NCBI GenBank assembly: GCA_040755995.1 | Contig: JBFMAF010000034.1 | Coordinates: 48,743-112,742 of the forward strand | Length of the DNA stretch: 64,000 nucleotides | Source: Acidobacteriota bacterium | GTDB taxonomy: Bacteria; Acidobacteriota; CAIWXX01 | Reading direction: 5' to 3' | Shown here: positions 18,392 through 42,532 of the stretch, piece after piece | Layout: each line of letters opens with the position of its first letter | How positions within the stretch are numbered: the first letter of the stretch is position 1 | Translations under genes and position numbers: made by a program | Notes under the pieces: generated by a model | What the model saw: the letters and a program-made list of their open reading frames with translations, nothing else | What the model was told of the DNA's origin: nothing | Databases searched by the model: none

Positions 18392-18415
18392 TGAAGTTTG
18401 GAGGTTAAGGGAGAC

Positions 18416-19552
18416 ATGGCATCTGTTCCAGTGTTCGCTCCATCCTCGACATTCCGTGACGAGCTGCGGCGCCGGGGAGGCGAGACGGCGCTCCGGTGCT
18501 ACCAGTGTGCGACATGTTCGAGCGTCTGCGAGCTGGCCCCCGCCGAAGCTCCATTTCCGCGTCGCCAGATGCTTTGGGCGCAGTGGGGACTGGCGGACCG
18601 GATAGCGGCGGACCCGTCGGTCTGGCTTTGTCACCAGTGCAACGATTGTACTCAGCGATGCCCGCGAGACGCGAAACCTGGTGACGTGCTTTCCGTGGTT
18701 CGCGCGCTGACCATCGAGAAGCTGGCGTTCCCGCGGTTCGTGGGGAGCCTTGTCGGGAAGGTCCGTGTGACGTGGCCGTTGGTTCTCGGCATCCCCATCC
18801 TGTTCTGGGTCCTCCTGCTCATGGCGGTGAACGGCCTGCAGGTGCCGCAGGACTTCCGGGCGTACGAGCAGTTCGTGCCGCACTGGTTGCTGTACGCGGT
18901 CTATTTTCCCGTGGTGGGCTGGGTGGTATTGGCGAGCTGGGTGAGCGGCCGCCGATTCTGGTCGCTGCTTGGACTGGGGGCCTCGCGCAACGGATCCTTC
19001 CTGGGGCATCTATGGCCGGCGCTGATGGAGGTCGGCACGCACAAGCGCTTCGGCAACTGCACCGCTGCGCGTCCGCGCAAGATCGCCCACCTTGCGCTGC
19101 TGTGGGGCTTCGTCGGCGCGGCAGTGACATCGGGGCTTCTGATCATGGCGATCTACGTCCAGGGCATGACGCTCGACAACGGGCAGATGCCGCTCTCTCT
19201 GTGGCACCCGTACAAGATCCTCGGCAACATCTCGGCGGTATTGCTCGTTGTCGGTGGGGTGCTGCTGGTGGCGAACCGGTTGCAAGACGGAGTCCGCTCC
19301 GGTGCCTCGACAGCATTCGACTCGTTCTTCCTGACTGTTGTGGGACTCGTGATCGTGACGGGCGTACTCACCGAAGCAGGGCGATTCGGATTTACTCCGG
19401 AGCTGGCATGCGCGCTCTACGTGGTGCACCTGGGTGTGGTACTCTGCCTGTTCGTCACGTTCCCCTATTCCAAGTTCGCGCACATGCTCTACCGTACGCT
19501 GGCAATGGTTCACGCCAGGATGGCGGGCATCGTCTCACCGCGCGCCAAGTAG
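18416..19552 (+). CDS. qmoC: QmoC membrane subunit
   Basis: HdrC-like CYQCATCSSVC and CHQCNDC..CP, transmembrane helices, PYSKFAHM. Confidence 0.93.
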   Translation: MASVPVFAPSSTFRDELRRRGGETALRCYQCATCSSVCELAPAEAPFPRRQMLWAQWGLADRIAADPSVWLCHQCNDCTQRCPRDAKPGDVLSVVRALTIEKLAFPRFVGSLVGKVRVTWPLVLGIPILFWVLLLMAVNGLQVPQDFRAYEQFVPHWLLYAVYFPVVGWVVLASWVSGRRFWSLLGLGASRNGSFLGHLWPALMEVGTHKRFGNCTAARPRKIAHLALLWGFVGAAVTSGLLIMAIYVQGMTLDNGQMPLSLWHPYKILGNISAVLLVVGGVLLVANRLQDGVRSGASTAFDSFFLTVVGLVIVTGVLTEAGRFGFTPELACALYVVHLGVVLCLFVTFPYSKFAHMLYRTLAMVHARMAGIVSPRAK

Positions 19553-19626
19553 AGCGCTGCCCAGGTGACGACGCGACAATGCAATGAATCTCGCGAGATA
19601 ATCTCAACGTAAAAGGAGGAGTACTC

Positions 19627-20895
19627 ATGAGTAAACTCGTACAACCGCATGGGAGTGCGGATCTGAAGGCTCTTCTGCTTCAGGGGAAGGAAGCGGAGGA
19701 GGAGAAGAAGAAGGCTGAGACGCTCAAGAAGGTCCCCATGACCAGCCGGGAAACCTCGGACTTGATCATGATGGCCATCGGAGCTTTCACGCCGCTGCCG
19801 GGGTTCATGGGCCGGGACGATTGGAAGGGCTGCTGCGAGAACTACCAGCTGCCGTCCATGAAGAACCTGTTCTGGCCCATCCCGATCACGCTGTCGGCCG
19901 AGCAGGCGCTTGCCGATTCGATCAAGATCGGCGAGGAAGTCGGGCTCTGGGACACGGAGACCGAGGCCTATGTCGGGACGATGAAGGTCACCGAGAAGTA
20001 CGGGATCGACAAGGATTACGAGTGCAAGCAGGTGTTCCGGACCACCGACAAGGCGCACCCGGGCGTGCAGAAGGTCATGGAGCAGGCACCCGTCAACCTG
20101 GCCGGCCCGATCCGGCCGTTCTCGGAGTCCTACTACCCCGAGATGTTCTCCACCATCTATCAGCGGCCTGCCGAAGCGAGGAAGGCCTTCGAGGAGCGCG
20201 GGTGGAGCACCGTGGCGGCGCTGCAGCTCCGCAACCCGATGCACGGCTCGCATGCATACCTGGCGTGGATCGCCATCGAAGTGTGCGACGGCGTCTACAT
20301 TCACCAGCTCGTCGGCAAGCTGAAGCCGGGAGACATACCGGCCGAGGTGCGCGTGAAGGCAATCGATGCGCTCGTGAACAAGTACTTCCGCAAGGAGCGC
20401 GTGATCCAGGGCGGGTACCCGATGGAGATGCGCTATGCCGGACCGCGTGAGGCGCTGTTGCACGCCGTGTTCCGCCAGAACTACGGCTGCAGCCACCTGA
20501 TCGTCGGCCGCGACCATGCAGGTGTCGGCGACTACTACGGCCCGTTCGATGCGCAGAAGATCTTCCTGGAGATCCCGCACGGAGCGCTCGAGCTCAAGCC
20601 GCTGCCGCTCGACTGGACCTTCTACTGCTACGAGTGCAAGGGCATGGCGTCGATGAAGACCTGCCCGCACGAGAGCAAGGCCGTGATCGACGAGAACGGC
20701 AACTACAAGGGCGGCGCCAGGCTCCTGCTCTCCGGCACGCTGCTCCGGAAGCTGATGAGCGAAGGGAAGCCCGTGCCCGAGGAGTTCAGCAAGCCCGAGG
20801 TCATCGCGATCCTGAACGACTACTACAACAGCCTCGAGAAGAAGGTGGAGATCAAGCTGCACGGATTCGCCACCGGCGAAGCCGGCAAGAAGTAA
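19627..20895 (+). CDS. sat: Sulfate adenylyltransferase, copy 1 (intact)
   Basis: [36 protein letters not shown]. Confidence 0.97.
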
Positions 20896-20926
20896 TTACC
20901 CCCTTTACCCTCGCCTAACCTTCACC

Positions 20927-20958
20927 AACCGGGGCCTCCAGGCCCCGGTTTTTCTTTT
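20927..20958 (+). terminator. Rho-independent terminator after sat copy 1
   Basis: AACCGGGGCC-TCCA-GGCCCCGGTT followed by a T-tract. Confidence 0.85.
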
Positions 20959-21465
20959 CGGCGGGGCCGTCCCAACCCTCGCATGCAGCTCTTCCACCGT
21001 GGCCCAGGATGGGCTGCACTCGCCCCCTCCCGACCCCTGCGCGAAATTTGACAGGCGACGTGCGCCCTGCTACGCTTCGCCCATGTTTCGCTTCCTTCAT
21101 GTGCATTCTCAAACGCTGCAGGCCCGGATAGGTCGGGGAGGGACCTGGCCGATGACGGCCTGGACTCCCTGTAGTCACGTCTTCTTGCTGCCGGTGGCCA
21201 CAGCGACGTCGATGGCCGCATCGACCACTCGAAGCCCGGGCCGACGATGACCACGGCCTGCATCAACGCATCGAAGGGGCGGTTCGTTCACCACGCGGCC
21301 CCGTTCCAATGCTTCACCGACACCCTTGGCTTCCAGGCTGGCGTGATGGCCAGGGGTGTGCAGGTCGGGAACGCGGTGCCCAGACTTCTCGGCGAGGTGG
21401 TGTCGAGGGTGACGAACGCAGCCGTGACAGCAGTAGGGTGATCAGATCTGACGACGGGTGGTCGG

Positions 21466-22680
21466 ATGGCGCAATGTCACTTCGAGGACATACTGGCGCG
21501 CTGTGCCCGAGAAAGAGACGAAAGCGCATTCTCTGATCTGATCGCCTTCTCCAAGGAGCGTCAGCTGTCCGTGGATCAGATCAGCCGTTTGGCCACGGTT
21601 CTTGCCGACTCGGGGGACAGGTTCAGCTCTCCACATCAGTGGCAGACTGCTGATATTGCCTCGACCGGTGGGCCAACATCTCTCTCCACAATCATGTCTC
21701 CACTTCATCTGCGCTGCCTTGGCTCTCATGTGATCTCATTGGGGGTCCCTGGGCGCCCGGCTGGCGCGGTAGACGTCCTCGCCCAGATTCCCCGCTACAA
21801 GGTGCACCTCTCAAGAGGTGACGCACAGGCGGTTCTGGCAGAGTGCGGCTACGTTCATCTTGTTGCCGACAGTACTTTTGCCCCTTTGGACGCCGCCTTG
21901 TTTAGTTTCCGGCGCCGAACAAAGGCGCCGCCGGTAGGTGCCATCGCCGTTGCGAGTCTGCTGTCGAAGAAGCTAGCAGTGGGAGTTCGCAGTGTCGGGC
22001 TGGATGTTCGCGTGGGCCATCATGGGAACTTCGGTGCCACGCTGCCGGAAGGCAGGGAGAACTCGATCACTTTTTGCCGCACGGCTCGCAACCTTGGCAT
22101 CCATGCGACCTGCTTCTTGACTGATGGAACGATGGCCTACCAGCCCTATGTCGGCAGATCCGAAGCACTTCTTGCGATAAGGGCCTTGATCGACGGCACT
22201 GCCTCACAATGGCTCCTAGAGCACAACCATCTATGTCGGCAAATGGCCTTGACGCTGCGCGGGGGTTCAGAGCCAACGAGTGCACTCTCTCTCCGAGACG
22301 CCTTTACCGCCAACCTGGAAGCACAGGGGTCCAACTACACCAACTTCCTTGCGCAGGCAGGTCGCGTGGAAGCGGCACCTCGTTTTCCGATCCGAGCGCC
22401 GTTGAACGGCTTCGTGAGGATCGATTTGGGCACCCTCAGGCTCTTGCTGGGTAAGTGGCAGTCAGGCGGGGATTGCAGTGCATCCGAGTACCCAGACGCT
22501 TGTGGCGTGACGTTGGTTCGACAATACGACGAGTTCGTGCACACGGGGGACGTGATAGCCCTGGTACGATGCCCGCATGAGGCTGCTGCACAGGCCACCG
22601 AAGACCTCGCGCGTGCATTCGGGATATCCGACGTGCCACTGCGAGCCGCTACAACCGAGATCATCGAGTCAGTCGGATGA
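21466..22680 (+). CDS. Divergent thymidine/pyrimidine-nucleoside phosphorylase family protein
   Basis: DIASTGG (cf. DKHSTGG), ASLLSKKLA, LDVRVG..GNF, and a C-terminal PYNP_C-like segment. Confidence 0.7.
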   Translation: MAQCHFEDILARCARERDESAFSDLIAFSKERQLSVDQISRLATVLADSGDRFSSPHQWQTADIASTGGPTSLSTIMSPLHLRCLGSHVISLGVPGRPAGAVDVLAQIPRYKVHLSRGDAQAVLAECGYVHLVADSTFAPLDAALFSFRRRTKAPPVGAIAVASLLSKKLAVGVRSVGLDVRVGHHGNFGATLPEGRENSITFCRTARNLGIHATCFLTDGTMAYQPYVGRSEALLAIRALIDGTASQWLLEHNHLCRQMALTLRGGSEPTSALSLRDAFTANLEAQGSNYTNFLAQAGRVEAAPRFPIRAPLNGFVRIDLGTLRLLLGKWQSGGDCSASEYPDACGVTLVRQYDEFVHTGDVIALVRCPHEAAAQATEDLARAFGISDVPLRAATTEIIESVG

Positions 22681-25600
22681 ACCAACCAGGAGGCACCATG
22701 CTCAGGCAAGAGTACGCATGTTTTCTTCATCCGCGCAGCAAGGGCCAGAGCCTGGACGAGAAGTGCTCCGAGTGCGGTCTTCCATTCAGCTTTCCTCTGA
22801 GTAATGCCCCCGTAGAGATTGCTGGGCGGACCATCCGCCGAGGCATAAGCCGTGGCTTCTACGGCGCTGTATACGAGGCAGAGCATCGCACCATCAGGAA
22901 CCGCACGTCCGCTATCAAGGTGATACCATTCGCCATCTACGCACCGGTTGAATCGGGAGGATACGGTAAGGACTTCTCGGCAGAGCTGCAACTTCATCAA
23001 GAGCTCTCGGCGATCGACTTGGTCGCAAGGCTTCTGGACGCCGGCGAATTCGAACTCTCCTTCAACAACGTCCGCATCCCTTGCCATTGGCTGGAGATGG
23101 AGTATGTTCGCGGCCCTACATTGAGGGATCTTATCGAAGCGGGTCCAGAGAACCCCCGCATCATTGCTCAGGTGGCATCCGATCTCTTCGACCTTGTGGA
23201 GCAGCTCCAGCAGCGCGGCAAGTTCCACAACGACCTCCATTCCGAGAATGTAAAGATTGTTCCCCTTGATCGCGGCCTGTGGCGAAGCAGTGCCATTGCC
23301 AAGAATGTTCAGACGAAGGTCCTTGATCTCGGCTCGGTCGCAGACGCATCGAAGTCCGCGCCAGCCCGGTGGGGGGATATCCATCAGGTCGCCAGCCACA
23401 TCCTTTCACTCACGGAGGCTTACGAGCGGGCCATTCCGTCAGTGGAGCCGGGCGATCAGAGGATCGTCTCAAGACTGAGGCAGGCGGCTCAACACTGGTG
23501 CGCTGCGGATTGTGACTCGCGGCGCGCGCGCCCACATGACCTAAAGGCGAGCATCGCAGCCGCGTGCAGCTATGGCGCAGAGTGGTGGATGGAGTCTCAC
23601 CGCCTTGATGCAATTGGTGCTCACATCAACGCTGTCACCATGCCCTCCCATAGGGCTCATGCGCTCTTTTGCGGGCCAGCGGGATGGCGCGATGTAATGC
23701 TGGAATCGGGCACCACGTTGCTCACGGGAATGCGCGGCTGCGGCAAGACGATGCTGCTCCGTTCGATCCACTGGCAGGCCAGGGTATTTCAATACGATGG
23801 AGAGACAGAAGAGGAGGTCCGAGAGAGGGTCAACACCGACCGGTTTCTCGGTCTGTTTGTTTCCTGCGCAACGTTGCTTCGAGGCCCCCGGCCGACTCAC
23901 ATCCCGGAACTGGTGATGCATCGCCTGTTCCTTGCCTTCGCCCTCGAGGCAGTCCACTTCATCGAGACGTGTGACTTGCGGAAGATAGGATCGTTCGACG
24001 GCCATGGGTCTGCCAGGCTCTCAGACCTTGCAGCGCGTATCGCACCCTGGTACATAGCCCCGCAGGAACCAGCCGACCTCTACGCTTTGGAGGCGTCTAT
24101 TCTCAGCGCGCTCAACAACGTCCCTTCGGAAAGTGGAGGGATAGCAGAGCTCAACCCGCGGGAGGCGTTCGAGGACCTCACCGCAGTGCTCCGATCCTGG
24201 GGCGATGTCGTCGGCAGCAAGAGATTGCTGTTCTTGTTGGACGATGTGTCGGTTCGCTACATGTCCCGCGAGAATGTTGAGACTATCCTGAAGCAACTAT
24301 GCTTCCAGAGCGGCATGTTCAGCTTCAAGCTCTCGACAGAAACACAGACACTGGCCCTGCATGCCCCAGGGGAGAAGCTTGCACAGGTTGGGCGAGACTA
24401 TCAAGTCTTCGACCTTGGGGAGGAGGTATTCGCGATACTTCGGGACCGCAAGCAGAGTTGCGAGTTCTTTAAAGACATCCTGATGAAGAGGGCTGTCTCA
24501 ACGACGAACCTGTCAGCCGCCCAGAGAGGTATGCCGGACATCCTCTTGGGACGGCTCTCTCTCACCGACATAGCAAGAGGCATTCGCGGGGAGTTCGGGA
24601 AGGGCAAGAAAGGCGAGAAGTTCCTTTACTGGAGCCTGGATGGACTTGTTGCGCTGTGCGTCGGCGATCTCGGCGACATCATCACCCTCTATGAGAGAAT
24701 GGTCCAGCATGTAGCTCCCGAGCGACCCAGCGTGGCCCCCAACGTCCAGCACAAAGAACTGATTGACTTTGCTGAAGCGCGGCTACGCGCACTCGCGGTG
24801 AGAGATCCCTGGCTGTACTCGCATGCAGTGGCTTTTGCCCAGGCAAGCAACCGGGAGCTGTTGGGCAGCACGCCGCAGCGGCTAAGGCAATATGCAGAGG
24901 TGGACGTGACCATCGGAATTGAGGCCGCGAACGAGCTCTTCCCCTTGGTCATGAAGCTTGTTGATGAAGGCGTCTTTGTGGCAACCGGCGCAACCTCCCG
25001 CATGAAATCGCGGGACGTGCTGCAGTTCAAACTCGCATTCCGAAAGATACTCGGGCTGACCCACAGGATTCCCTTGAGCATGAGGGACCGCTTTGAGCTC
25101 CAGAATGCACGGCTCTCCTCATGGCTGAAATCGCCGAGCAGTGCCGTTCTGGAGAGCAGCCGTGCCGCTGATGAGACGGAGCCCGATGCAGAGCAGGAGC
25201 CGGAGCCTTCGGCGGTTGAGTTGCAGGCAGCTGAGCAGCAGCTGTCGCTCGCTTTCGACGGGGAGAGCATGACCCGAGGGGATGCCCGAAAGCCCGATGA
25301 AGCACCTTCCATCGCGAGGGTGCTCCCTACTCCCCGTCTCCTTCACGACGTGACATCACGACGGATACCACCCTCGCGCTGGGGTGCAGCACTGGCCAAC
25401 TGCACTGTGGTTGCCGCCATCGGCTTTGAGGATAGGTCGATTGGGGCCTGGAAGAACCTGCTTGTCCGCACAGTCCCTAGACGTGCGGTCTTGCTGCGCT
25501 ATCCTGACCCGGGTCTCATGAATGCAGCAAACGAGAGGATCCTGACATCGATGCTGAGGGAATCGACAGTTGACACCGTGATCGTCGACACCGGCAGTCT

Positions 25601-26378
25601 ACCGTCGGATGATCTGGCGCTTTGCGTCGCGGCAGATGTCACGGGGTTGCTGGTCATAGATGTTACGTCGATGACAAAGGCGATTATCTTCGACTTGGTT
25701 CGGAAGGGATTGGTTGAAAGGCATCGCTTGGCGCTCTTGCATACGTGCGCCGATCAGTATTTCCCAAGGGAGTCGGAGTTGTCAGACATCGCGGAGCAAC
25801 TGACGATCAGCCTTGACAAGGTGCGCTCACCCAAGGGCCTAAAGGAGACCTTCGACGAGCTGGACAGGAGAGTCACCGGCACAAAGGGGCCATACGAATG
25901 CAATCAGATAGGAGAGACACACGCGGACCCCAGTCAACCCGTATTTCTTGCCGCGCTCATTTCGCTCAAGCATGAACCTATCAGAGCGATACTCGAACAG
26001 GGCGCCGTCGAGCGAAGTGCGATGATCTATCCTGTCCACTCTGCGGGTAGGAGGGCGCGCCGTTCGGTGGTGGCGGAGCAACTGGCTCATTTCCTGGGCC
26101 AGATGTACCACGGAGATGCGATTCCCGCGAAATCTCTGGATCACGTAGCAGTGTATCGCGAACTGAAGGCGCTCCATCAAAGGTGGAGTCTCAGCTCGTC
26201 ATACAATTTCGAGGTGGCATTGGCGGGGACCAAGATGCACACGGTTGGGGCGGCGATGTTCGCTGCGACAGCAGTGCCGTCGTCAGTGTACTATGCCAAG
26301 ACGAAGGGGTTCGATGTCTCTGCATTCACGCAGGGCACGGGAGAGACACAGGCGCATGTACTGGAGCGGACGGAATGA
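22677..26378 (+). CDS. Multidomain protein: Ser/Thr kinase, ORC-CDC6-like P-loop ATPase, C-terminal DUF6293/CARF-like region
   Basis: Kinase: RGFYGAVY, AIKVI, HNDLHSEN, LDLG. ATPase: GMRGCGKT, LLFLLDD. C-terminus: IGFEDRS, IDVTSMTK, ALAGTK. ATGA overlap with the upstream gene. Confidence 0.72.
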   Translation: MNQPGGTMLRQEYACFLHPRSKGQSLDEKCSECGLPFSFPLSNAPVEIAGRTIRRGISRGFYGAVYEAEHRTIRNRTSAIKVIPFAIYAPVESGGYGKDFSAELQLHQELSAIDLVARLLDAGEFELSFNNVRIPCHWLEMEYVRGPTLRDLIEAGPENPRIIAQVASDLFDLVEQLQQRGKFHNDLHSENVKIVPLDRGLWRSSAIAKNVQTKVLDLGSVADASKSAPARWGDIHQVASHILSLTEAYERAIPSVEPGDQRIVSRLRQAAQHWCAADCDSRRARPHDLKASIAAACSYGAEWWMESHRLDAIGAHINAVTMPSHRAHALFCGPAGWRDVMLESGTTLLTGMRGCGKTMLLRSIHWQARVFQYDGETEEEVRERVNTDRFLGLFVSCATLLRGPRPTHIPELVMHRLFLAFALEAVHFIETCDLRKIGSFDGHGSARLSDLAARIAPWYIAPQEPADLYALEASILSALNNVPSESGGIAELNPREAFEDLTAVLRSWGDVVGSKRLLFLLDDVSVRYMSRENVETILKQLCFQSGMFSFKLSTETQTLALHAPGEKLAQVGRDYQVFDLGEEVFAILRDRKQSCEFFKDILMKRAVSTTNLSAAQRGMPDILLGRLSLTDIARGIRGEFGKGKKGEKFLYWSLDGLVALCVGDLGDIITLYERMVQHVAPERPSVAPNVQHKELIDFAEARLRALAVRDPWLYSHAVAFAQASNRELLGSTPQRLRQYAEVDVTIGIEAANELFPLVMKLVDEGVFVATGATSRMKSRDVLQFKLAFRKILGLTHRIPLSMRDRFELQNARLSSWLKSPSSAVLESSRAADETEPDAEQEPEPSAVELQAAEQQLSLAFDGESMTRGDARKPDEAPSIARVLPTPRLLHDVTSRRIPPSRWGAALANCTVVAAIGFEDRSIGAWKNLLVRTVPRRAVLLRYPDPGLMNAANERILTSMLRESTVDTVIVDTGSLPSDDLALCVAADVTGLLVIDVTSMTKAIIFDLVRKGLVERHRLALLHTCADQYFPRESELSDIAEQLTISLDKVRSPKGLKETFDELDRRVTGTKGPYECNQIGETHADPSQPVFLAALISLKHEPIRAILEQGAVERSAMIYPVHSAGRRARRSVVAEQLAHFLGQMYHGDAIPAKSLDHVAVYRELKALHQRWSLSSSYNFEVALAGTKMHTVGAAMFAATAVPSSVYYAKTKGFDVSAFTQGTGETQAHVLERTE

Positions 26379-26405
26379 TGCGGCGGGCAAGTCTGAGGGG
26401 TAGTC

Positions 26406-26822: not shown

Positions 26823-27008
26823 AGGATGGGGAAGGGCATCTTCACGCCGGGCGCAACCGCCGCATGACGACATCCCATAGATCCGCTACCGCTTGACCGC
26901 AACGAACCCAACAAGTCCCGAGAGGAGGAGCGGCGACCGGATGTCCCGCTTCGCGGATGCGGGGGGTGAGTCCATCTTTCGCGACATGCTCGCCGATCGC
27001 AGAGTCCG

Positions 27009-27063
27009 TGTGGCATACGGCTCAGACAAATTGACCCACTTTGCTCAGATAAACTGACCCACC
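27009..27063. repeat. IS21-family terminal region: TG terminus and two 20-bp direct repeats
   Basis: GCTCAGACAAATTGACCCAC (27020-27039) and GCTCAGATAAACTGACCCAC (27043-27062), 23-bp period. Confidence 0.65.
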
Positions 27064-27655: not shown

Positions 27656-27702
27656 CGGGGGCCACGCTCCGGACCACCATCGATTCAGCAGAGGAGCCCT
27701 GG

Positions 27703-28758: not shown

Positions 28759-28782
28759 TGTCCCTCGGAATCCACTCTCTGG

Positions 28783-30453: not shown

Positions 30454-30472
30454 AAGACGTCCCTCCTCAATG

Positions 30473-34306: not shown

Positions 34307-34725
34307 TGCTTCTTCTCCCGATTCCTCCGAAGCCGACGAGGCGGCGGTGGTGGCAGCCGCAATGCCTTCTCCAGCCGGTCCACTGCCGCAAGAATCTCAC
34401 TCTGAATCCGCACGAGAGTCGCCCGAGCCCGGCGGAAATCCCGATAGCGCAGCGTGAGCCGTTGAACCCGGAGACTGTCGGCAGGGGACACCGACCGCAA
34501 GCGCGTCTTGCCCTCCTCACTCCAGGTGATAACGTCGCTGACGTGTCGCGCCTCCTCAGACCTGGCGCAATGGCAGCCGGCCTTCCCGCACCGCGTGCGC
34601 AGCTTGTAGAGCGTCCCCTTGATCAACTCACGGGGTCGCAACAACGCCTCGATCAGGCGGCGATGCCGCTCGATCAGGTCGTGGAGCGTCTGCCTTTGAC
34701 GGCTCGCATGTACCAAATCGGCCAT
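34303..34725 (-). CDS. DUF6788-like IS accessory protein
   Basis: GTL...RCGKAGCHC...H motif; overlaps the transposase start (ATGA). Confidence 0.7.
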   Translation of the reverse strand: MADLVHASRQRQTLHDLIERHRRLIEALLRPRELIKGTLYKLRTRCGKAGCHCARSEEARHVSDVITWSEEGKTRLRSVSPADSLRVQRLTLRYRDFRRARATLVRIQSEILAAVDRLEKALRLPPPPPRRLRRNREKKQ

Positions 34726-35113
34726 TCTGGACCTCAGCCTTTATTCGCATTCTAGTAATAACATAAAGATTCAACCAAGGCAACAAGAAAAATGTGAGTT
34801 CCGACGAATAACCCTCCCTAACTCGGCCGACTAGCCGCCAGGGAGCCTACCCCTCGGAAAACCGGCCCATCGCCGCATGTGGCCGCTGGGCGGCCCGCCC
34901 TCCGAGGTTCACGGCAGGATCGTGGAGCCGGCGACAGGAGCCCGGGTGACGCCACACCCTACTGTCTGAATCGCAGGGAAAGCATCCGAGAAAGGGAGAA
35001 TGGACGGCCAATGCCGTCCAGCTGCCGAGCCTTCCTTGTTCCCATGTGTAATCCCTAGTTGGCGCCGCCCCTGGGGAACCTGGTACCGATCGATGATGTG
35101 CCAGCCTTCCTGT

Positions 35114-35356
35114 GGCGGCGTTCGACACGTTCTTCCTGACGGTGGTCGCGCTGGTGATCCTGACAGGTGTCCTCACGGAGGGGGGCGACTTGCATTCACA
35201 CCGGAGCTGGCCTGTGTGCTCTACGTGGTGCACCTGGGCGTGGTGCTCTGCCTCTTCATCACGTTCCCCTACTCCAAGTTCGCGCATATGCTCTACCGTA
35301 CGCTGGCCATGGTTCACGCCAGAATGGCGGGCATCGCGTCACCGCGCGCCAGGTAG
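35114..35356 (+). pseudogene. qmoC: 3' fragment of qmoC, diverged duplicate with a 1-bp deletion
   Basis: Homologous to about 19312-19552 (AFDTFFLTVV...FTPELACVLYVVHLG...PYSKFAHMLYRTLAMVHARMAG). Frameshift near 35180. Confidence 0.9.
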
Positions 35357-35424
35357 AGCGCTGCTGAGGATGGGACAATCCAACAAGTCTCGCGAGATAA
35401 TTTCAACGAAAGGGAGGAGTACTC

Positions 35425-36693
35425 ATGAGTAAACTCGTATCGCCGCATGGGAGTGCGGATCTGAAGGCTCTTCTGCTTCAAGGCAAGGAAGCGGAGGAGG
35501 AGAAGAAGAAGGCTGAGACGCTCAAGAAGGTGCCCATGACCAGCCGGGAAACCTCGGACCTGATCATGATGGCCATCGGAGCTTTCACGCCGCTGCCGGG
35601 GTTCATGGGCCGGGACGATTGGAAGGGCTGCTGCGAGAGCTACCAGCTGCCGTCCATGAAGAACCTGTTCTGGCCCATCCCGATCACGCTGTCGGCCGAG
35701 CAGGCGCTTGCCGATTCGATCAAGATCGGTGAGGAAGTCGGGCTCTGGGACACGGAGACCGAGGCCTACGTCGGGACTATGAAGGTCACCGAGAAGTACG
35801 GGATCGACAAGGAGTACGAGTGCAAGCAGGTGTTCCGGACCAACGACAAGGCGCATCCGGGCGTGCAGAAGGTCATGGAGCAGGCACCCGTCAACCTGGC
35901 CGGTCCGATCCGGCCGTTCTCGGAGTCCTACTACCCCGAGATGTTCTCCACCATCTATCAGCGCCCCGCGGATGCGAGGAAGCTGTTCCAGGAGCGCGGG
36001 TGGAGCACCGTGGCGGCGCTGCAGCTGCGCAACCCGATGCACGGCTCGCACGCATACCTGGCGTGGATCGCCATCGAAGTCTGCGACGGCGTCTACATCC
36101 ACCAGCTCGTCGGCAAGCTGAAGCCGGGAGACATACCGGCCGAGGTGCGCGTGAAGGCGATCGATGCGCTCGTGAACAAGTACTTCCGCAAGGAGCGCGT
36201 GATTCAGGGCGGGTACCCGATGGAGATGCGCTATGCCGGACCGCGTGAGGCGCTGTTGCACGCCGTGTTCCGCCAGAACTACGGCTGCAGCCACCTGATC
36301 GTCGGCCGCGACCACGCAGGTGTCGGCGACTACTACGGCCCGTTCGATGCGCAGAAGATCTTCCTGGAGATCCCGCACGACGCACTCGAGCTGAAGCCGC
36401 TGCCGCTCGACTGGACCTTCTACTGCTACGAGTGCAAAGGCATGGCGTCGATGAAGACCTGCCCGCACGAAAGCAAGGCCGTGATCGATGAGAACGGCAA
36501 CTACAAGGGCGGCGCCAGGCTCCTGCTCTCCGGTACGCTACTTCGCAAGCTGATGAGCGAAGGCAAGCCGGTGCCCGAGGAGTTCAGCAAGCCCGAGGTC
36601 ATCGCGATCCTCAACGACTACTACAACAGCCTCGAGAAGAAGGTGGAGATCAAGCTGCACGGATTCGCCACCGGCGAAGCCGGCAAGAAGTAA
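35425..36693 (+). CDS. sat: Sulfate adenylyltransferase, copy 2 (intact, near-identical to copy 1)
   Basis: 422 aa with about 8 substitutions relative to copy 1 (e.g. ADARKLFQE vs AEARKAFEE). RBS retained. Confidence 0.95.
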
Positions 36694-36724
36694 TTACCCC
36701 CTTTACCCTCGCCTAACTTTCACC

Positions 36725-36756
36725 AACCGGGGCCTCCAGGCCCCGGTTTTTCTTTT
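36725..36756 (+). terminator. Terminator after sat copy 2
   Basis: Identical hairpin to 20927-20958. Confidence 0.85.
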
Positions 36757-36949
36757 CGGCTCATGAGGTGCCTGACCACAATAGGTCGTGCCCGATGTGT
36801 TCAGTGGTCTGGATGCGCTTCTTCTTTCCCCGCCGCATGACGCCCGTGCCTTGCTCGAGGGAAACGGCGAGGCGGTGAGGGGGAGACGCGGAGAACCGAA
36901 CACCACCTCTTCACCGCGTGTCCGCGTCGCTGCGACTCCCTCTCTCTTC

Positions 36950-37083
36950 GTTCGTATCGAAGCTCCGGGAAGGCCGTCTCGCTCGCGGTACCGGGTGCTG
37001 AAGCCTGCCGCCTCCAAGCAAGCAGCAAGCTGCTGGGCCAAACCGGAATCCTCTTCAACGTGACTCGTGAAAACGTCTGGCAT
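36950..37083 (-). pseudogene. TIR-domain protein, N-terminal fragment (truncated cassette)
   Basis: MPDVFTSHVEEDSGLAQQLAACLEAAGFSTRYRERDGLPG resembles the start of TIR_2. Begins just after an attC core. Confidence 0.6.
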
Positions 37084-37109
37084 CGGATATATCCCGCCGC
37101 TCGTTGTAC

Positions 37110-37172
37110 GCCCAACGCCGAGCATCAGCGGCACGAGGTCTTATCCGTGTCCGCTGGACGCTCTTGTTCGGC
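37110..37172 (-). other. Integron attC site
   Basis: Minus strand GCCGAAC-AAGAGCGTCCAGCGGAC...GCCGCTGATGCTCGGC-GTTGGGC: R''/R' boxes around an imperfect hairpin, 63 bp. Confidence 0.8.
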
Positions 37173-37367
37173 ACGTCTTGCCCTGGCGGTCGTGGCTCGG
37201 CGGCTTATCTCCTCGATTGTGAGATCCTCGTCGAGGCCCTCTCGCCACTTTGTTTGGTCAAATGGTTCTCGCTGAATCAGCGCTACGAAACGCTCGGCTT
37301 CAATGTCGCCAAGATACCTAGCTAGGACCTGTAGCCCCTTCATACGGATCTCAGTGTCAGTAATCAT
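37125..37367 (-). CDS. Putative antitoxin partner of a PIN toxin
   Basis: MITDTEIRMKGLQVL...EAERFVALIQREPFD. Overlaps the PIN stop codon and runs into the attC. Confidence 0.7.
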   Translation of the reverse strand: MITDTEIRMKGLQVLARYLGDIEAERFVALIQREPFDQTKWREGLDEDLTIEEISRRATTARARRAEQERPADTDKTSCR

Positions 37368-37820
37368 AGCCTGCGCTCCTTGATAAACAGTATCGGGTCC
37401 GCGATGTTGATTGCCGTCACCCGAGGCTTGCATTTCAATATTCTGTCATCGGTTGTGATGAAGTACTCGCATCCAGCGGCGATTGCGCAGGCCAGGTGCA
37501 AGGAATCGATCTTCGGAAGGCCCTCTTCATGCAGACTGCTCGCGTTCGCGAGCAGCTCGGGGCTCTCCTGGACCTCCAATTCAGCGCAGGCCCTCCAGAC
37601 GCTAATCCGGCTCTTGCGTTCCGGATACGGGTTCCTGTCGTTCTCGTAATCCAGAATATAAGACCAAACCCGGGATGCTTGTGACAAGCTGGTAATCCTT
37701 GCTGTGTTTATCCCACCAGTCCCGCGTCCATTTCGTGCGCGCGGCCATTTCCGGTTCGCTGCGGGTCTCGTAGTAGAAGCTCGGTATCGTCGTTTCGATG
37801 TAGACAAGCTGCTTCAGCAC
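37364..37820 (-). pseudogene. PIN-domain toxin; out-of-frame chimera of two PIN subfamilies
   Basis: N-part VYIETTIPSFYYE...WTRDWW joins near 37670 to a C-part VWSYILDYEN...DSLHLACA...FITTDD in another frame. Confidence 0.65.
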
Positions 37821-37974
37821 AAATCAGCCGCTGGCATTGAAAATCCGGTCAATCCGTCACGCAACACTCGGGTGATACGGTTCGGCTCTTCTGCTTCCAC
37901 CATAGCACCTCCTCTTGCGATGTAGTACATCCCGCGGTTTCATCGATGTCATGCTCTGCAAGTCAACCGGCCCG

Positions 37975-38038
37975 GCCCAACACCCCAGATCAGCGGCGGG
38001 CCGCGCAGCGGACCGTCCGCTGCAACCGGTTGTTAGGC
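37975..38038 (-). other. Integron attC site
   Basis: Minus strand GCCTAAC-AACCGGTTGCAGCGGAC...CCGCTGATCTGGGGT-GTTGGGC. The upstream gene's TAA stop lies within GCCTAAC. Confidence 0.88.
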
Positions 38039-38710
38039 CGGAGGCTCCTCGCGCTCGAACCTCGCGAGTTCGGCGAGGTGCCCGGCCGCCGATCGCAGTG
38101 CCCGACCCGAGAGGGCGTCCACCAACCGGCGGGCCCGTGGCCCGAGGTCAGGGCGCTCGACGTACCTGCGCGACAACAGGTGCCCGAGCGCGAGGAACGC
38201 CAGCCCGAAGACGACGTTCGCGATGAGCCAGGCAAGATCGATGCGGGCGAGCGCATCAACGCCGGTCAGCGCCTCGAACAGAACCAGACCTGCGGGGAGC
38301 CAGGCTACCACGCCTCCGATCACTGCCCACTTGAGTGCACGGTACTCCACGAGCCTAGTGTGCTCGAGCTCGCGCTGGATCTCCATTACCGGTGCGCCGT
38401 AGTCGAGCTTGAGGCTGTTGACCAACAGGTAGGTGCACAGCGCGGTGATCGCGCCGGTGAGCACGGCAAGCGCGCCACCCACGATGGCGTAGCGCGGCTC
38501 GGTTACGTGAGCGGCGAGGACCGACATCGCGACGACGAGCATGGTGATGCCGAGCGCCACCTCCAGCGCCCTCCACAGGACGTAGGGCGCGAGGGCGAAG
38601 CGGACCTTGCGCAGCAGCGCTTCGCGCAGAAGCCGCTGGTCGATGGCGACGCTCCGCTCCAGCATGGTGCCGTGCGCGGCCCAGGCTTCTTTCAAATCAT
38701 CGAACTGCAT
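38033..38710 (-). CDS. Membrane protein, putative anti-sigma factor
   Basis: MQFDDLKEAW start, about four transmembrane helices, overlaps the ECF sigma gene. Confidence 0.7.
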   Translation of the reverse strand: MQFDDLKEAWAAHGTMLERSVAIDQRLLREALLRKVRFALAPYVLWRALEVALGITMLVVAMSVLAAHVTEPRYAIVGGALAVLTGAITALCTYLLVNSLKLDYGAPVMEIQRELEHTRLVEYRALKWAVIGGVVAWLPAGLVLFEALTGVDALARIDLAWLIANVVFGLAFLALGHLLSRRYVERPDLGPRARRLVDALSGRALRSAAGHLAELARFEREEPPA

Positions 38711-39215
38711 GTGATCCTCCCGTGTTGCTCGCGCGCTGGTCCAACGCGACGCGCAGCTTGTTTTTGATGCGCAATAGTTTCGTGCCGACGTTTGACACGG
38801 AGATGCCGAGCACTTCCGCGATCGACGCGTGGTCGGTCCCGTCGAGGTAGAGAAGGACGAGCGCCTTATCGAGCGCGCCCAGATCGTCGATGCAGCGCAA
38901 GAGGAGTTGGACATCCTCGTTGGGCTCGACGCAAGCTGCCGCGATGGTGATCGCGTGGGCGTCGAGCGACAGGTGCCCCTCCCGATGCCGCCGTCCACGG
39001 CGGTAAAACGAGATCGCGACGTTGAGCGCGATGCGATAGACCCACGTCGTCTCCTTGTAGCGCTCGTCGTACCGGTGGCGGTAGCGCCAAAGTTGCAGGG
39101 CGACCTCCTGAAAGACGTCCTCGCGGTCCGTCACGTCCCGGCAATAGGCGTAGGCGATCTTGTGGATCAGCCGGGCGTGCCGCCGGATCAGGTCGGTGAA
39201 CTCTTGGGCTTCCAT
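38697..39215 (-). CDS. ECF-subfamily RNA polymerase sigma factor
   Basis: EDVFQEVALQLWR, TWVYRIALNVA, IAEVLGISVSNVGTKLLR. Confidence 0.92.
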   Translation of the reverse strand: MEAQEFTDLIRRHARLIHKIAYAYCRDVTDREDVFQEVALQLWRYRHRYDERYKETTWVYRIALNVAISFYRRGRRHREGHLSLDAHAITIAAACVEPNEDVQLLLRCIDDLGALDKALVLLYLDGTDHASIAEVLGISVSNVGTKLLRIKNKLRVALDQRASNTGGSHAVR

Positions 39216-39358
39216 CGGGGGTATTATTCGCAGGCGCCCCTCGCCAGATCACAGGCTCAGTCGTTCTTTCTTCCGGCGCCCCGACGCAGGGGGCTGCTGA
39301 GCCCCGCCGCCTCCACGGACGGCCTGAAGAGAGCCCGCCTGCGCCGATCCCGCTATCG

Positions 39359-39400
39359 GCCTAACAATAATTAGACTGATCCGCATAAGATGCGGAACTA
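39359..39400 (-). other. Putative integron attI site
   Basis: Minus strand ...CTTATGCGGATCAGTCTAATTATT-GTTAGGC: core site with no attC hairpin, at the head of the first cassette. Confidence 0.6.
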
Positions 39401-39500
39401 CGCTTCCCTGCCTTGATAGCGCGTCGCTGATTCATCCGGCAGAATCGCGATAAGTCCTTCTGTTTCAGTCATTTGTGCCCCATGCTTTGGAATATCCTCC

Positions 39501-39526
39501 GTTCTTATGCGGATCGGCATAAGAAC
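39501..39526. repeat. Palindrome GTTCTTATGC-GGATCG-GCATAAGAAC; also a 13-bp inverted repeat with 39378-39390
   Basis: TCTTATGCGGATC (39503-39515) is the exact reverse complement of GATCCGCATAAGA (39378-39390). Confidence 0.75.
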
Positions 39527-39538
39527 CTCCTCGTTGCC

Positions 39539-39572
39539 TCAAAGTCCGTCAACCGGGCTGCGTAGGCCCCTG
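39539..39572 (-). pseudogene. intI: Remnant of the integron integrase C-terminus
   Basis: Encodes RGLRSPVDGL-stop, matching the IntI tail GVRSP[LV]D, directly upstream of the putative attI. Confidence 0.45.
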
Positions 39573-39932
39573 AGTTCCCCGTCACGCGGGGTGGCCGCTT
39601 CCTGGGGCGCCCGCCCGGGTTGCGCCGCGCGATGGCCCACCGAGTTCACCGGACGAAGCGAAGGGGCCACCTCAACCGGTTCGCCAGTGACGACGTCGAC
39701 CGGGCATCCCCTCGGTGTCCGGCACTGTACGATGCTTCTCTTCGGGATGCCAGCGCCGATCAGGGGTAGTCTTGATCTTCGCCACTCGTTGCGGCTCATA
39801 TGGCACGATCACTCTCAACCGCCCCCTGCGTCCTGGATCAACTACTACAGCGCTAATCGCTGCGAACTCCCTCCATTCTGAACCGAGACGACGAATGTGT
39901 CAACAAGGCTTGCGCGTGCGCGTGCGCGCACC

Positions 39933-40293
39933 CACCACGGCCCGTTCGATTCGCAGAAGATCTTCCTCGTGATCCGGCACGGCGCTCGAGCTCAAGCCGC
40001 TGCCACTGGACTGCACATTCTACTGCTACGAGTGCAAGGGCATGGCGGCGAGGAAGACCTGCCCGCACGAGAGCAACGCGGTGATCGACGAGAACGGCAA
40101 CTACAAGGGCGGCGCCAGACTCCTGCTCTCCGGCACGCTGCTCCGCAAGCTGATGAGCGAAGGCAAGCCGGTGCCCGAGGAGTTCAGTAAGCCCGAGGTC
40201 ATCGCGATCCTGAACGACTACTACGACAGCATCGAGAAGAAGGTGGAGATCAAGCTCCACGGTCACGCCACAGGCGCCGCCGAGAAGAAATAG
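39933..40293 (+). pseudogene. sat: sat copy 3 (3' fragment, frameshifted)
   Basis: HGPFDSQKIF...[27 protein letters not shown]...[14 protein letters not shown]. Confidence 0.9.
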
Positions 40294-40323
40294 CCACCCT
40301 CTATACCCTTGCTACGCTTCACC

Positions 40324-40355
40324 AACCGGGGCCTCCGGGCGCCGGTTTTTCCTTT
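40324..40355 (+). terminator. Terminator after sat copy 3 (variant)
   Basis: AACCGGGGCC-TCCG-GGCGCCGGTT-TTTCCTTT. Confidence 0.75.
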
Positions 40356-40369
40356 CGGTAGCAAAGTTC

Positions 40370-40415
40370 TTGACATCATACCCATTATGGGGTGTATCAT
40401 TCCCAATATGGGAAT
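40370..40415 (+). promoter_or_regulatory. Promoter region with two palindromic operators
   Basis: TTGACA at 40370. Repeats ACCCATTATGGGG and TTCCCAATATGGGAA, the second overlapping the start codon. Confidence 0.55.
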
Positions 40416-41013
40416 GAGCAGGTCATCGGTGGGGATCGCTGACGCATTGTTCACCAAGGTGCAGCAGCGTGTGCTTGGGGTTCTCTTGGGAAATCCTGGC
40501 CGGACTTTCTACGCCAACGAGATCATCGCGCTCGCCGGGTGCGGCACCGGCGCGGTCCAGCGGGAGCTGGCCCGCCTTGCAGCGGCGAAGCTGGTGACGG
40601 TCACCCGCGTTGGCAATCAGAAGCACTACCAGGCAAACGCTGCCGCGCCTGTCTTCGAGGAGTTGCGCGGCCTGGTGCTGAAGACCTCCGGGCTAGCTGA
40701 TGTGCTTGGTGCTGCGTTGGCACCGCTGGCGACGCAGATCAGTGCTGCTTTCGTCTACGGCTCGGTGGCCAAGGGGCAGGACACGGCAGTGAGCGACATC
40801 GATCTGATGGTGCTGAGCGACACTTTGGCCTACGCCGATCTCTTTGTCGCCCTCGAAGGGGCCGCGAAACGGCTCTGTCGCCAGGTGAATCCGACGGTGT
40901 ACTCTCGGCAAGAACTCGGCAATCGGATTCAACAGGGCAATTCCTTTGTCACACGGGTCCTGGCGCAACCCAGGCTCTGGTTGATCGGTGGGGAACGTGA
41001 TCTCGGCGCTTGA
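40408..41013 (+). CDS. HTH-fused minimal nucleotidyltransferase (MNT) antitoxin
   Basis: N-terminal wHTH (GAVQRELARL); FVYGSVAKG..SDIDL. Confidence 0.85.
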   Translation: MGMSRSSVGIADALFTKVQQRVLGVLLGNPGRTFYANEIIALAGCGTGAVQRELARLAAAKLVTVTRVGNQKHYQANAAAPVFEELRGLVLKTSGLADVLGAALAPLATQISAAFVYGSVAKGQDTAVSDIDLMVLSDTLAYADLFVALEGAAKRLCRQVNPTVYSRQELGNRIQQGNSFVTRVLAQPRLWLIGGERDLGA

Positions 41014-41425
41014 GAACCTGTGCGGCCCAGGGAAACCGCTCAAGAAGGAACCGCCTGATACCCAGGAATATCAGGGCCTGAGGCGGTCCGGATTGGTACG
41101 GCTTGCCGACGCCGGCAACACCGCCAACTCGCTCGAGAGCCGCTTCGACCTGGGCTACAACGCGGCGCATTCCCTATGCTTGGCGGCGTTGCGCCGTCAC
41201 GGCTATCGGGCGGTCAACCGATACGTCGTCTTTCAGGTGTTGCCGCACACTCTGGGCCTGGGGCCGGAGGTATGGCGCGTCCTGGCCAAGTGCCATGACC
41301 TCCGGAATCTCGGCGAGTACGAGGGCGACCTCGGGGTCGATGGGCGAATCGTAACCGGCCTGATCGCCGCCTGTCAGGCAGTGGCCGCCAGGCTGGACGC
41401 GCTGGGACCGCCGAGCCAACCGTGA
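40997..41425 (+). CDS. HEPN-like partner of the MNT
   Basis: SRFDLGYNAAH...GYR...HDLRNLGEY; overlaps the MNT gene. Confidence 0.72.
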   Translation: MISALENLCGPGKPLKKEPPDTQEYQGLRRSGLVRLADAGNTANSLESRFDLGYNAAHSLCLAALRRHGYRAVNRYVVFQVLPHTLGLGPEVWRVLAKCHDLRNLGEYEGDLGVDGRIVTGLIAACQAVAARLDALGPPSQP

Positions 41426-41685
41426 CCGCCGTTGGCCAGATCGAAATGCTGACGCAGCAGCGGGTGGTGGCGCTGTCAAGCGACTCGGCGGGCTAGGCAG
41501 ATTCCTTGGGACTGTCTTGCCGCAACGGCGTCGCCGGGCCTGTCTTTGGGCCGTAGCACTGCCGCCGCCCTTTATGCCGAGCTTCGCGAATAGATCTACG
41601 TGCGGTATCTCTGAGTACTGCGGCAGCAGGCCGCGCCCGCGGGCCTGATCGAGCATGGCGAGTATCTCGCCGAACTGCAGTTTCG

Positions 41686-42471
41686 ATCCGGCCATTCTCG
41701 GAGCCCTACTACCCCGAGATGTTCGCGAGCATCTACCGGAGGCCTGCTGACGCGAGGAAACTCTTCCAGGAGCGCGGGTGGAGCACCGTGGCGCCCCTGC
41801 AGCTGCGCAACCCGATGCACGGCTCGCACGCATACCTGGCGTGGATCGCCATCGAAGTCTGCGACGGCGTCTACATTCAACAGCTCGTGGGCAAGCTGAA
41901 GCCGGGAGACATCCTGGCCGAAGTGCGCGTGAAGGCGATCGATGCGCTCGTGAACAAGTACCTCCGCAAGGAGCGCGTGATCCAGCGCGGGTACCCGATG
42001 GAGATGAGGTATGCCGGACCGCGTGAGGCGCTGGTGCACGCGGTGTTTCGCCAGAACTACGGTTGCAGCCACCTGATCGTCGGCCGCGACCACGCGGGTG
42101 TCGGCGACTACTACGGCCCGTTCGATGCGCAGAAGATCTTCCTGGAGATCCCGCACGGCGCGCTCGAGCACAAGCCGCTGCCCCTCAATTGGACCTTCTA
42201 CTGCTGCGAGTGCAAGGGTATGGCGTCGATGAAGACCTGCCCGCGCCAGAGCAAGGCCGTTATCGATGAGAACGGCAACTACAAGGGCGGCGCCAAGCTG
42301 CTGCTTTCCGGCACGTTGCTCCGGAAGCTCGTGAGCGAAGGGAAGCCGGTGCCCGAGGAGTTCAGCAAGCCCGAGGTCATCGCGATCCTGAACGACTACT
42401 ACAACAGCATCGAGAAGAAGGTGGAGATCAAGCTGCACGGATTCGCCACCGGCGACGCCGGCAAGAAGTAA
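41686..42471 (+). pseudogene. sat: sat copy 4 (3' two-thirds, degraded)
   Basis: Lacks the first ~165 codons, frameshift near 41700, missense changes at conserved sites (IQRGYP, YCCEC, CPRQ). Confidence 0.9.
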
Positions 42472-42502
42472 CACCCCCTCATGCCCTAGCTACACATTCG
42501 CC

Positions 42503-42532
42503 AACCGGGGCCCCGGACCCCGGTTCTTTCTT
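42503..42532 (+). terminator. Terminator after sat copy 4 (variant)
   Basis: AACCGGGGCCCCGGACCCCGGTT-CTTTCTT. Confidence 0.7.

Follow-up and report, generated by a model that had tools for sequence, protein, structure and literature searches.

In Rhs arrays, the formation of a circle followed by a single homologous crossover, which shunts the old gene end downstream, has been proposed (Jackson et al., 2009, PMC2935791). Arrays of the T6SS (type VI secretion system) of Vibrio cholerae have been attributed to homology-facilitated illegitimate recombination, with integrons as a parallel, though one in which an integrase is lacking (Kirchberger et al., 2017, PMC5361080), and hotspots of horizontal gene transfer that are free of mobile genetic elements were reported to turn over by double homologous recombination in the flanking core genes (Oliveira et al., 2017, PMC5635113). 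About half of the bacterial gene-transfer hotspots, as well as many defence islands, are without a recognisable mobile-element gene (PMC5635113). Here we describe a window of 64,000 nucleotides (nt) from an Acidobacteriota bacterium (assembly GCA_040755995.1, contig JBFMAF010000034.1, positions 48,743 to 112,742), in which the ATP sulfurylase gene sat is followed by three further, complete or partial, copies of itself, each copy having different DNA behind it. The architecture is of a known kind, namely a displacement array, in an unusual setting: it stands at housekeeping genes, carries defence, integron and toxin-antitoxin cargo, and occurs at several loci of the genome.

The likeness to the Rhs displacement arrays is close, since in both cases an intact gene comes first, followed by partial copies of the same clade that vary in length, share one boundary and have different sequence after each. 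In Rhs arrays, however, the boundary lies inside the open reading frame (ORF), with a toxin tip and its immunity gene forming the variable part, whereas the sat boundary lies past the stop codon and the terminator of a housekeeping gene and the cargo consists of whole, independent modules. The sat anchor is an ATP sulfurylase (PF01747 and PF14306 by Pfam), without the RHS/YD repeats and the in-frame toxin tip with immunity gene of an Rhs locus. With the effector-immunity arrays of V. cholerae the locus shares the serial addition at a conserved upstream anchor and the pushing of older modules downstream, but those arrays keep orphan immunity genes and not a duplicated anchor, and their anchor lies in the secretion cluster. 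The hotspots free of mobile elements are similar as integrase-free, defence-rich variable spots beside a core gene where flanking homology is used; there, however, a double crossover replaces DNA without a scar, whereas the sat events would be additive. Each would leave one partial copy of the flank and with it a legible record of the insertions.

Prophages at icd (phage 21, e14) likewise have a displaced 3' gene fragment beyond the insert, with an integrase and a short fixed core; unlike these, the sat array contains neither an integrase nor phage genes. Specialised-transduction heterogenotes arise when an element carrying host DNA inserts by homology and duplicates that DNA. We did not find the displacement pattern described at housekeeping genes in the literature searched (supplementary files excluded), which does not establish that it is unpublished.

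Copy A of sat closes the operon aprBA-qmoABC-sat, a dissimilatory sulfate operon in which the ATP sulfurylase serves sulfate activation. The same gene order was found in one relative genome (G032) and in one metagenome locus (L102), and the Pfam families upstream of sat include APS-reductase_C, FAD_binding_2, FlpD and Fer4. Self-BLAST and a repeat search of the window showed four copies in direct orientation (A to D; Table 1) that are 86-94% identical overall. Compared with copy A, copy B is 94.2% identical over 1650 nt, its sat product of 422 amino acids (aa) being 98% identical in protein, copy C 89.7% over 428 nt and copy D 91.8% over 851 nt; between C and D the identity is 86.4%. Length and identity of the copies are far beyond chance expectation. 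No further copy of the repeat was found in the whole genome, all four places lying on this contig (C34). The genome is a 7.7-Mb draft of 56 contigs, 99.84% complete with 3% contamination, and has a distant second sulfurylase gene (37% identity) on another contig.

All four homologies stop at one point, 67 nt after the sat stop codon and about 14 nt beyond the T-run of a 10-bp GC-rich hairpin. A terminator scan scored this hairpin as terminator-like in copies B and D; in copy A it lies at ~20927-20950, as derived from the hairpin of B with an offset of 15798 nt. The left ends differ and lie, in coordinates of copy A, at 19313 in qmoC (B), at 20534 in sat (C) and at 20108 in sat (D). The homologous anchor, 428-1650 nt of sat homology, is one-sided, and the DNA that follows the copies is unrelated: a defence island after A, a degenerate integron after B, an MNT/HEPN-like pair after C and MazEF after D. 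A preliminary description of the window had listed four direct sat copies running through one terminator, with the homology ending just past it and a different cargo after each, and the alignments bear this out. A common right end together with variable left ends is what single-crossover (Campbell-type) insertion predicts, and this prediction is supported. The one-sided homology, a boundary that coincides with the end of the anchor's transcription unit and the lack of any recombinase or common terminus fit additive insertion as well. The fixed right end needs no special site, since conservation ends and variable DNA begins there.

The reading that we hold to be probable, if only just, is that the array consists of stacked insertion-duplication scars left by serial RecA-type single-crossover insertion of circularised congener DNA. 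At least three times, a segment from a congeneric donor would have crossed with the resident sat by one homologous (RecA-type) crossover; the segment, most simply a circle, would have started inside qmoC or sat and run through the terminator into the downstream genes of the donor. A single crossover would add DNA and not replace it, leaving the intact gene first and the new cargo next, and the partial sat, whose left end would be the end of the incoming segment, would be shunted downstream with all the earlier DNA. The units would then be cargo 1 with B, cargo 2 with C and cargo 3 with D, and a unit between direct sat repeats might in principle be released as a loop and insert in the same way into a relative that lacks it, a recombinase-free counterpart of a cassette array; toxin-antitoxin and methylase genes may, as the preliminary description supposed, oppose such loss. 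What the data show are the array geometry, the shared right end with variable left ends, the congeneric origin and past purifying selection of the alleles, the unequal ages of the copies, the lack of a recombinase or a common junction motif, and the recurrence at other genes. We infer the circular intermediate, the RecA dependence and the sequence of the insertions, with B apparently the latest arrival and C and D apparently older than the split from two related organisms. Campbell-type or homology-facilitated capture had already been put forward in the preliminary description; its core agrees with the one-sided homology, the variable left end and the fixed right end, but sat is one of several anchors, and the part from C through cargo 3 to D is not a recent capture.

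The origin of the alleles was addressed with a maximum-likelihood tree of 84 sats, made up of the four copies and the best 80 sats from metagenome contigs. In this tree, of the type that had been suggested as a check, the four alleles form an exclusive clade with a support of 1.0. The copies share 88-96% identity among themselves, as against at most 82-83% at the nucleotide level with any of the 80 outside sats; the nearest outside sat reached 86% in protein and 82% in nucleotides among the 80 metagenome loci, and 82% in protein among the 40 relatives searched, two of which belong to the same family. The exclusive clade and the far lower outside identity point to congeners as donors, and the derivation of the alleles from one genus-level lineage is supported by these comparisons. 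Such donor congeners were not present in the genome or metagenome collections searched, and in the 80 metagenome sat loci neither cargos 1-3 nor any shared downstream synteny was found.

The differences between the copies fall mainly on third codon positions (first/second/third: A-B 4/5/35, A-D 15/8/32, A-C 6/6/18), with dN/dS ratios (Nei-Gojobori) of 0.083 for A-B, 0.20 for A-D and 0.25 for A-C. By our own estimate, a ratio of about 0.5 would be expected if a fragment had been dead since a duplication in place; the lower values therefore indicate that divergence accrued mostly while both partners were working genes. Private changes (synonymous/non-synonymous) amount to 10/0 in B and 7/1 in A, as against 17/17 in D and 9/11 in C. 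Thirteen of the 17 private replacements of D hit residues with a conservation of at least 95% among the 80 outside sats, and those of C likewise lie mostly at residues invariant in this set. D has no indel or stop, and C has a 2-bp frameshift deletion near its start. Because of the replacements at invariant residues the ORF of D is regarded as dead, and C and D are, to judge from these changes, long-dead pseudogenes, B being intact; the decay noted for C and D in the preliminary description is thus confirmed. Neutral decay can be estimated at ~3-4% for C and D, with none detectable for B, and a difference in age, with B fresh and C and D old, is supported by the pattern of substitutions. The divergence between A and B is patchy; counted per 100 nt, it is highest in qmoC, at 22%, and falls to 0-1% in two stretches. 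Moreover, the copy that matches D switches weakly (8 versus 5 sites in the left half, 3 versus 11 in the right half), with a switch point at ~20520-20580, inside 61 nt over which A, B and D do not differ. This patchiness, small in numbers, may fit reciprocal hybrids or gene conversion.

Logan contigs of four runs from four studies were compared with the window; they stem from relatives and not from the source organism, and at most 6% of the words of 33200-43190 were present in any public run compared. In run X1 (study P1), one contig joins the intI flank of cargo 2 (to 39921) by way of 22 GC-rich letters to the sat fragment at the left end of C, and a 664-nt contig contains the intI flank, at most ~376 nt that are unplaced, and then cargo 3 from 40365. 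In run X7 (study P3), a 1384-nt contig bridges the junction between cargo 3 and D at 41683/41684 with 80 and 41 nt on either side. Identities of ~89-93% indicate that the contigs of X1 and X7 come from other organisms, and since the C and D junctions recur in independent runs, the part comprising C, cargo 3 and D can be taken as real, old and common to relatives. This part is shared through common descent or block transfer, in agreement with the decay estimate. Of the capture from related strains that had been supposed earlier, the congeneric origin stands; the C-cargo 3-D part, which two other organisms share, is no recent capture. No run contig covered 34870-35203, around the junction between cargo 1 and B, and this non-coverage is no evidence. 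Among metagenome loci whose sats are 90-97% identical, upstream homology was kept in all 33 pairs and downstream homology in 7 of 16, these loci not being independent of each other.

The same kind of scar was found at other core genes of this genome. A genome-wide scan for direct repeats of at least 300 nt, 80-98.5% identical and separated by less than 60 kb on one contig, returned 69 pairs, and 11 loci were inspected by their ORF layout, with Pfam on nine of them (C24, C8 and C20 left out). At six of the 11 loci, seven core genes are followed downstream by a 3' fragment of themselves with the stop codon of the full gene as its end (Table 1). In six of these seven genes, 62-77% of the differences occupy third codon positions, and neither gaps nor stops occur; the GH99 gene is the exception (3/9/10 by codon position). 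On contig C44, the GH99 gene and a 303-aa ORF are convergent and both 3' fragments are interleaved between them, as expected of one contiguous donor segment spanning both gene ends. The cargo at these core genes is mostly of defence type. The metH cargo, with BrxL, BrxB, a 1153-aa methylase and other large ORFs, resembles a BREX system, and Mrr and DUF5131 genes lie beyond the GH94 3' fragment on C4. No integrase was found in the cargos of these loci by Pfam. A true Rhs array is also present (C16:1-17156), with four nested core copies of 656-2651 nt that are 85-93% identical and share one boundary ~600-700 nt before their differing 3' tips. On C24, C52, C8 and C20 the scar pattern did not fit or was ambiguous. 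The role of sat as a special anchor, as the preliminary description had it, is not upheld, given seven other core genes at six loci and an Rhs array that are alike.

At the GH94 gene of C4, a duplicate of 1.6-2.1 kb of its 5' end was additionally observed 15.6 kb upstream; the interval contains a type I methylase and RadC, and scars thus flank this gene on both sides.

The recurrence of the scar suggests that single-crossover insertion-duplication is a regular route to accessory DNA in this lineage. The addition of DNA at variable spots beside core genes, as opposed to a swap, has been inferred mostly from statistics, whereas here the scars can be read, and each partial sat copy gives the age and the rank of one insertion. 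If this is true, integrase-free islands could be found and delimited simply by scanning genomes for core-gene 3' fragments, the Rhs displacement model would no longer be confined to toxin loci, and the process would be directly testable in culturable relatives. If only occasional illegitimate recombination is at work, the locus would be a clean natural example without a new principle. A step further, which we take with much reserve and consider doubtful, is that a core-gene 3' fragment together with its cargo might form a recombinase-free mobile cassette that is released by host homologous recombination between the direct anchor copies and inserts in a congener, by way of the homology arm it has captured, at the corresponding core gene. 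Genes such as sat, metH and GH94 would be species-restricted docking sites, and defence systems would pass between members of a genus with no integrase involved; the sat locus would then be the first case with four successive dockings readable in one sequence.

Several points weigh against the insertion of congener DNA as circles. Neither a donor configuration nor an empty site nor a circle was observed, and the closest sat in the collections is 82% identical in nucleotides. The two junctions of the youngest unit, A-cargo 1 and cargo 1-B, are known from the assembly alone, a second sat piece was present in none of the 80 related metagenome loci, so that the sat array itself is rare, and the mosaic signal between A and B is weak (13 and 14 informative sites). 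At identities of 86-94%, homologous recombination is inefficient, even though exact runs of up to 61 nt are present. In addition, no Ku was found in the 99.84%-complete genome and no clear microhomology at the left junctions, which leaves the first closure of the circle unexplained. C and D may also have been longer at first and shortened later. Circularisation by non-homologous end joining was rejected, as no Ku gene was found. ComEC is present but, as nearly all controls have it as well, gives no information.

A way around the closure of a circle would be a template switch or break-induced replication, in which a replicating or broken 3' end within sat invades a linear donor fragment at the homology, copies it to its end and returns to the resident chromosome upstream of where it entered, the partial copy being purely resident. 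The geometry of the result would be identical, no circularisation step would be needed, which suits the lack of Ku, and the 22-25 nt of GC-rich filler at the left junction of C, present both in the window and in run X1, resembles untemplated or slipped synthesis. At the aligned ends of the three left junctions, however, there is no clear microhomology, and template switching alone gives no route by which a unit could spread between genomes. The data fit the circle model equally, and we consider the template switch unlikely. As to homology-facilitated illegitimate recombination, which usually goes with a few nt of microhomology at the illegitimate joint and a loss of recipient DNA, the one-sided anchor agrees, the left junctions have no clear microhomology, and recipient DNA is duplicated and not lost.

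Site-specific islands, whose attP would carry a replacement 3' end of sat and whose integrases would since have been lost, might account for the one right boundary, and an intact gene in front of displaced 3' fragments is the leftover expected of them; a tyrosine recombinase remnant is indeed present in cargo 2. This remnant, however, is an integron integrase whose cassettes face away from C, and no integrase turned up in cargo 1, in cargo 3 or in any cargo at the six other loci scanned. Within the window, integrase families were found neither in the 68 ORFs by Pfam nor in the 87 stop-to-stop frames of the array, apart from the internally deleted integron integrase as the sole match. The three left ends differ from each other and have no common core; no shared motif or common element terminus was detected among 33 junction segments (11 junction sets from nine loci). 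The repeats extend over 428-1650 nt and not over tens of nt; both this excess over att sites and the lack of an intact integrase had been pointed out in the preliminary description and are borne out. Neither Rfam families nor tRNA genes were found in the window, so that there is no RNA-gene target for insertion. We regard such islands as improbable at this locus.

A history in place, in which full sat paralogues arose by tandem duplication or one old import and were truncated later, would suit the mutual closest relationship of the four alleles and the completeness of B. In addition, C adjoins the edge of the multi-copy intI unit, which may be a later arrival. This history would nevertheless need three truncations that spared the same right end and three insertions just after the terminator, with the same coincidence at seven other genes, and we consider it quite improbable. 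An assembly artefact, that is co-occurring strains joined through the shared sat, could be suspected in a draft of 56 contigs with 3% contamination, where exact A-B runs might confuse a short-read graph and where no public run compared contains the stretch, but it is very improbable, since at the left junctions unique DNA meets the middle of sat, which shared k-mers cannot create, since both C junctions and the cargo 3-D junction recur in two other runs at ~92%, and since a swap within A or B would do no more than make unit 1 a 15.8-kb circle with the same junctions.

Table 1. Features of the sat array, other intI copies and other core genes with a downstream 3' fragment; positions are those of the window unless a contig is given.
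Feature	Position	Strand	Basis or remarks
Native operon 5' of sat: aprB, aprA, two small genes, qmoA, qmoB, qmoC	11301..19552	+	Pfam
Copy A (reference)	19313..20962	+	qmoC end (240 nt), spacer of 74 nt, intact sat 19627-20895, 3' untranslated region (UTR), terminator
Cargo 1, defence island, after A	20963..35117	.	
C5-methylase C-terminal fragment	21247-21441		
Thymidine-phosphorylase-like gene	21466-22680		
STK-AAA-CARF protein, 1233 aa	22677-26378		PADLOC PDLC01925, E 4.5e-210
Vsr	26406-26822		
C5 methylase	27703-28758	-	
HerA	28783-30453	-	
NurA-like gene	30473-32269	-	
IS4-like insertion sequence, inside cargo 1	32355..34979	-	
Transposase of the insertion sequence	32648-34306		
DUF6788 protein of the insertion sequence	34303-34725		Upstream of transposase
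Copy B	35118..36760	+	qmoC tail with 1-nt deletion, spacer, intact sat 35425-36693, terminator 36725-36748
Cargo 2, degenerate integron, after B	36761..39933	-	
attC-like site	37110-37172		One box mismatch
PIN-like toxin-antitoxin cassette	~37125-37820		
attC-like site	37975-38038		Boxes RYYYAAC / GTTRRRY exact
ECF sigma-factor cassette with 321-aa ORF	38697-39215; ORF 38033-38998		
intI, internally deleted	39357-39923	-	5' part and 3' flank kept
Copy C	39934..40358	+	sat 3' fragment: last 357 coding nt, UTR, hairpin
Cargo 3, after C	40359..41683	+	
MNT-like nucleotidyltransferase with MarR-type domain	within 40309-41013		PADLOC PDC-M05A, E 7e-82; Pfam
HEPN-like partner	40988-41425		PADLOC PDC-M05B, E 2e-58
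Copy D	41684..42532	+	sat 3' fragment: last 785 coding nt, UTR, hairpin 42503-42525
MazF-like toxin, first gene after D	42655-43002	-	Pfam PemK_toxin, E 5e-12
Small gene upstream of mazF	42999-43217	-	Putative toxin partner, by position only
Other intI copy	C36:325600-327112		
Other intI copy	C55:234485-235093, 238257-238464		
Other intI copy	C47:263-532		
Other intI copy	C33:135623-135832		
GH94 gene, 2761 aa	C4 (20000-52600)		Repeat 1216 nt, 90.8%; small ORFs between copies
metH, 687 aa	C33 (74102-92469)		374-aa 3' fragment, 1112 nt, 88%; ~15 kb cargo
MMPL transporter gene	C30		720 nt, 89%; PLD-like, lipase and phosphoesterase genes
GH9 gene	C11		593 nt, 95%; non-defence: ECF sigma factor, DUF4367, peptidases, outer-membrane protein
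NuoF-like gene and ferredoxin	C29		960 nt, 89%; CHAT-AAA-TPR protein
303-aa ORF	C44 (28559-36668)		371 nt, 87%
GH99 gene	C44 (28559-36668)		341 nt, 94%

The cargos bear the names that the preliminary description had given to them, namely a defence island, integron cassettes, MNT-HEPN and MazF, as judged by Pfam, PADLOC and the attC and intI searches; cargo 1 was annotated with Pfam, PADLOC and NCBIfam. The insertion sequence (IS) inside cargo 1 is bounded by 28-nt terminal inverted repeats (32355-32382; 34952-34979), has duplicated ~5 nt of its target, and ends 138 nt from the left end of B. Its own inverted repeats and the target duplication 138 nt away mark it as a secondary simple insertion and not as a junction, and the IS as the cause of the truncation of B was ruled out on the same grounds. 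Capture of the ISCR/IS91 type was also considered, on the basis of the duplicated-flank pattern of complex class 1 integrons. It was rejected, since the only transposase is a DDE enzyme of the IS4-like type with its own inverted repeats and target duplication; no HUH (rolling-circle) transposase was found among the ORFs and stop-to-stop frames of the array. The IS is present once in the assembly, occurs at ~92% identity in runs X1 and X7, and had no match in the plasmid collection. In run X7 its depth is several-fold above that of sat, so that it is probably multi-copy in that relative.

Cargo 2 resembles a chromosomal integron in having an intI homologue (TIGR02249), attC-like palindromes and cassettes with a toxin-antitoxin pair and a regulator, and can be labelled an integron with a co-oriented ('inverted') integrase. 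It differs from such an integron in that the integrase is internally deleted, attI was not identified in this cargo and the array is truncated. Two attC-like palindromes of 63-64 nt, 865 nt apart, flank the PIN-like pair; they were detected by a regular expression and a fold test and not by a published attC model. The intI unit has five genomic copies with sharp shared ends, and every intI inspected is broken, by the internal deletion in the window and by an in-frame stop in the fullest copy on C36, which scored 231 and 221 bits on two halves of TIGR02249 (cut-off 265). Since attC-like sites lie 3' of intI in the window, and likewise next to two further copies of intI, the direction of the array is from intI to the terminator of B. 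By these matches, the integron family of cargo 2 is native to the genome. The end of intI that adjoins C bears a promoter-like site. At its 3' side, the boundary of the intI unit falls exactly on an attC-type end motif, as if there were a recombination site downstream of intI.

The sat fragments are unlike integron cassettes, having no attC features. They were also tried as such cassettes, with the terminator as a proto-attC, and rejected, as the 24-nt hairpin is without paired boxes and the homology extends 14 nt beyond GTT.

The sigma-factor cassette (38013-39365) was found at 97.5% identity with other flanks in run X3, a sediment run, and the many loose ends at the attC site in X3 indicate the behaviour of a mobile cassette. 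The summed contig depth at the attC-like site (37876-38209) is ~3100 in X3, far above its neighbours, and this attC type seems abundant in the X3 community. At the end of the array, a TIR N-terminal fragment gave a weak match (E 9e-4), which was the only match when truncated genes were sought in the junction gaps. A palindromic dispersed repeat of ~175 nt (36764-36939) starts 3 nt beyond the end of the B homology and cuts the TIR-like ORF; at least 10 genomic copies, 68-83% identical, lie on other contigs. It is similar to a miniature inverted-repeat transposable element or a repetitive extragenic palindrome, and gives rise to many loose ends in runs X1 and X7.

In cargo 3, a promoter- or operator-like palindrome precedes the MNT/HEPN-like pair, and the cargo was found at ~92% identity in runs X1 and X7. 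The MazF region after D occurs at ~89% in run X1. D itself keeps an ATG-started ORF of 250 aa (41719-42471) that contains the catalytic domain (Pfam 3-211/212) without the PUA-like domain. Unrelated to the sat array, the self-BLAST also showed a run of diverged paralogous segments, 64-74% identical, at 49947-54436, and the ORF at 49223-50647 is a radical-SAM gene by Pfam.

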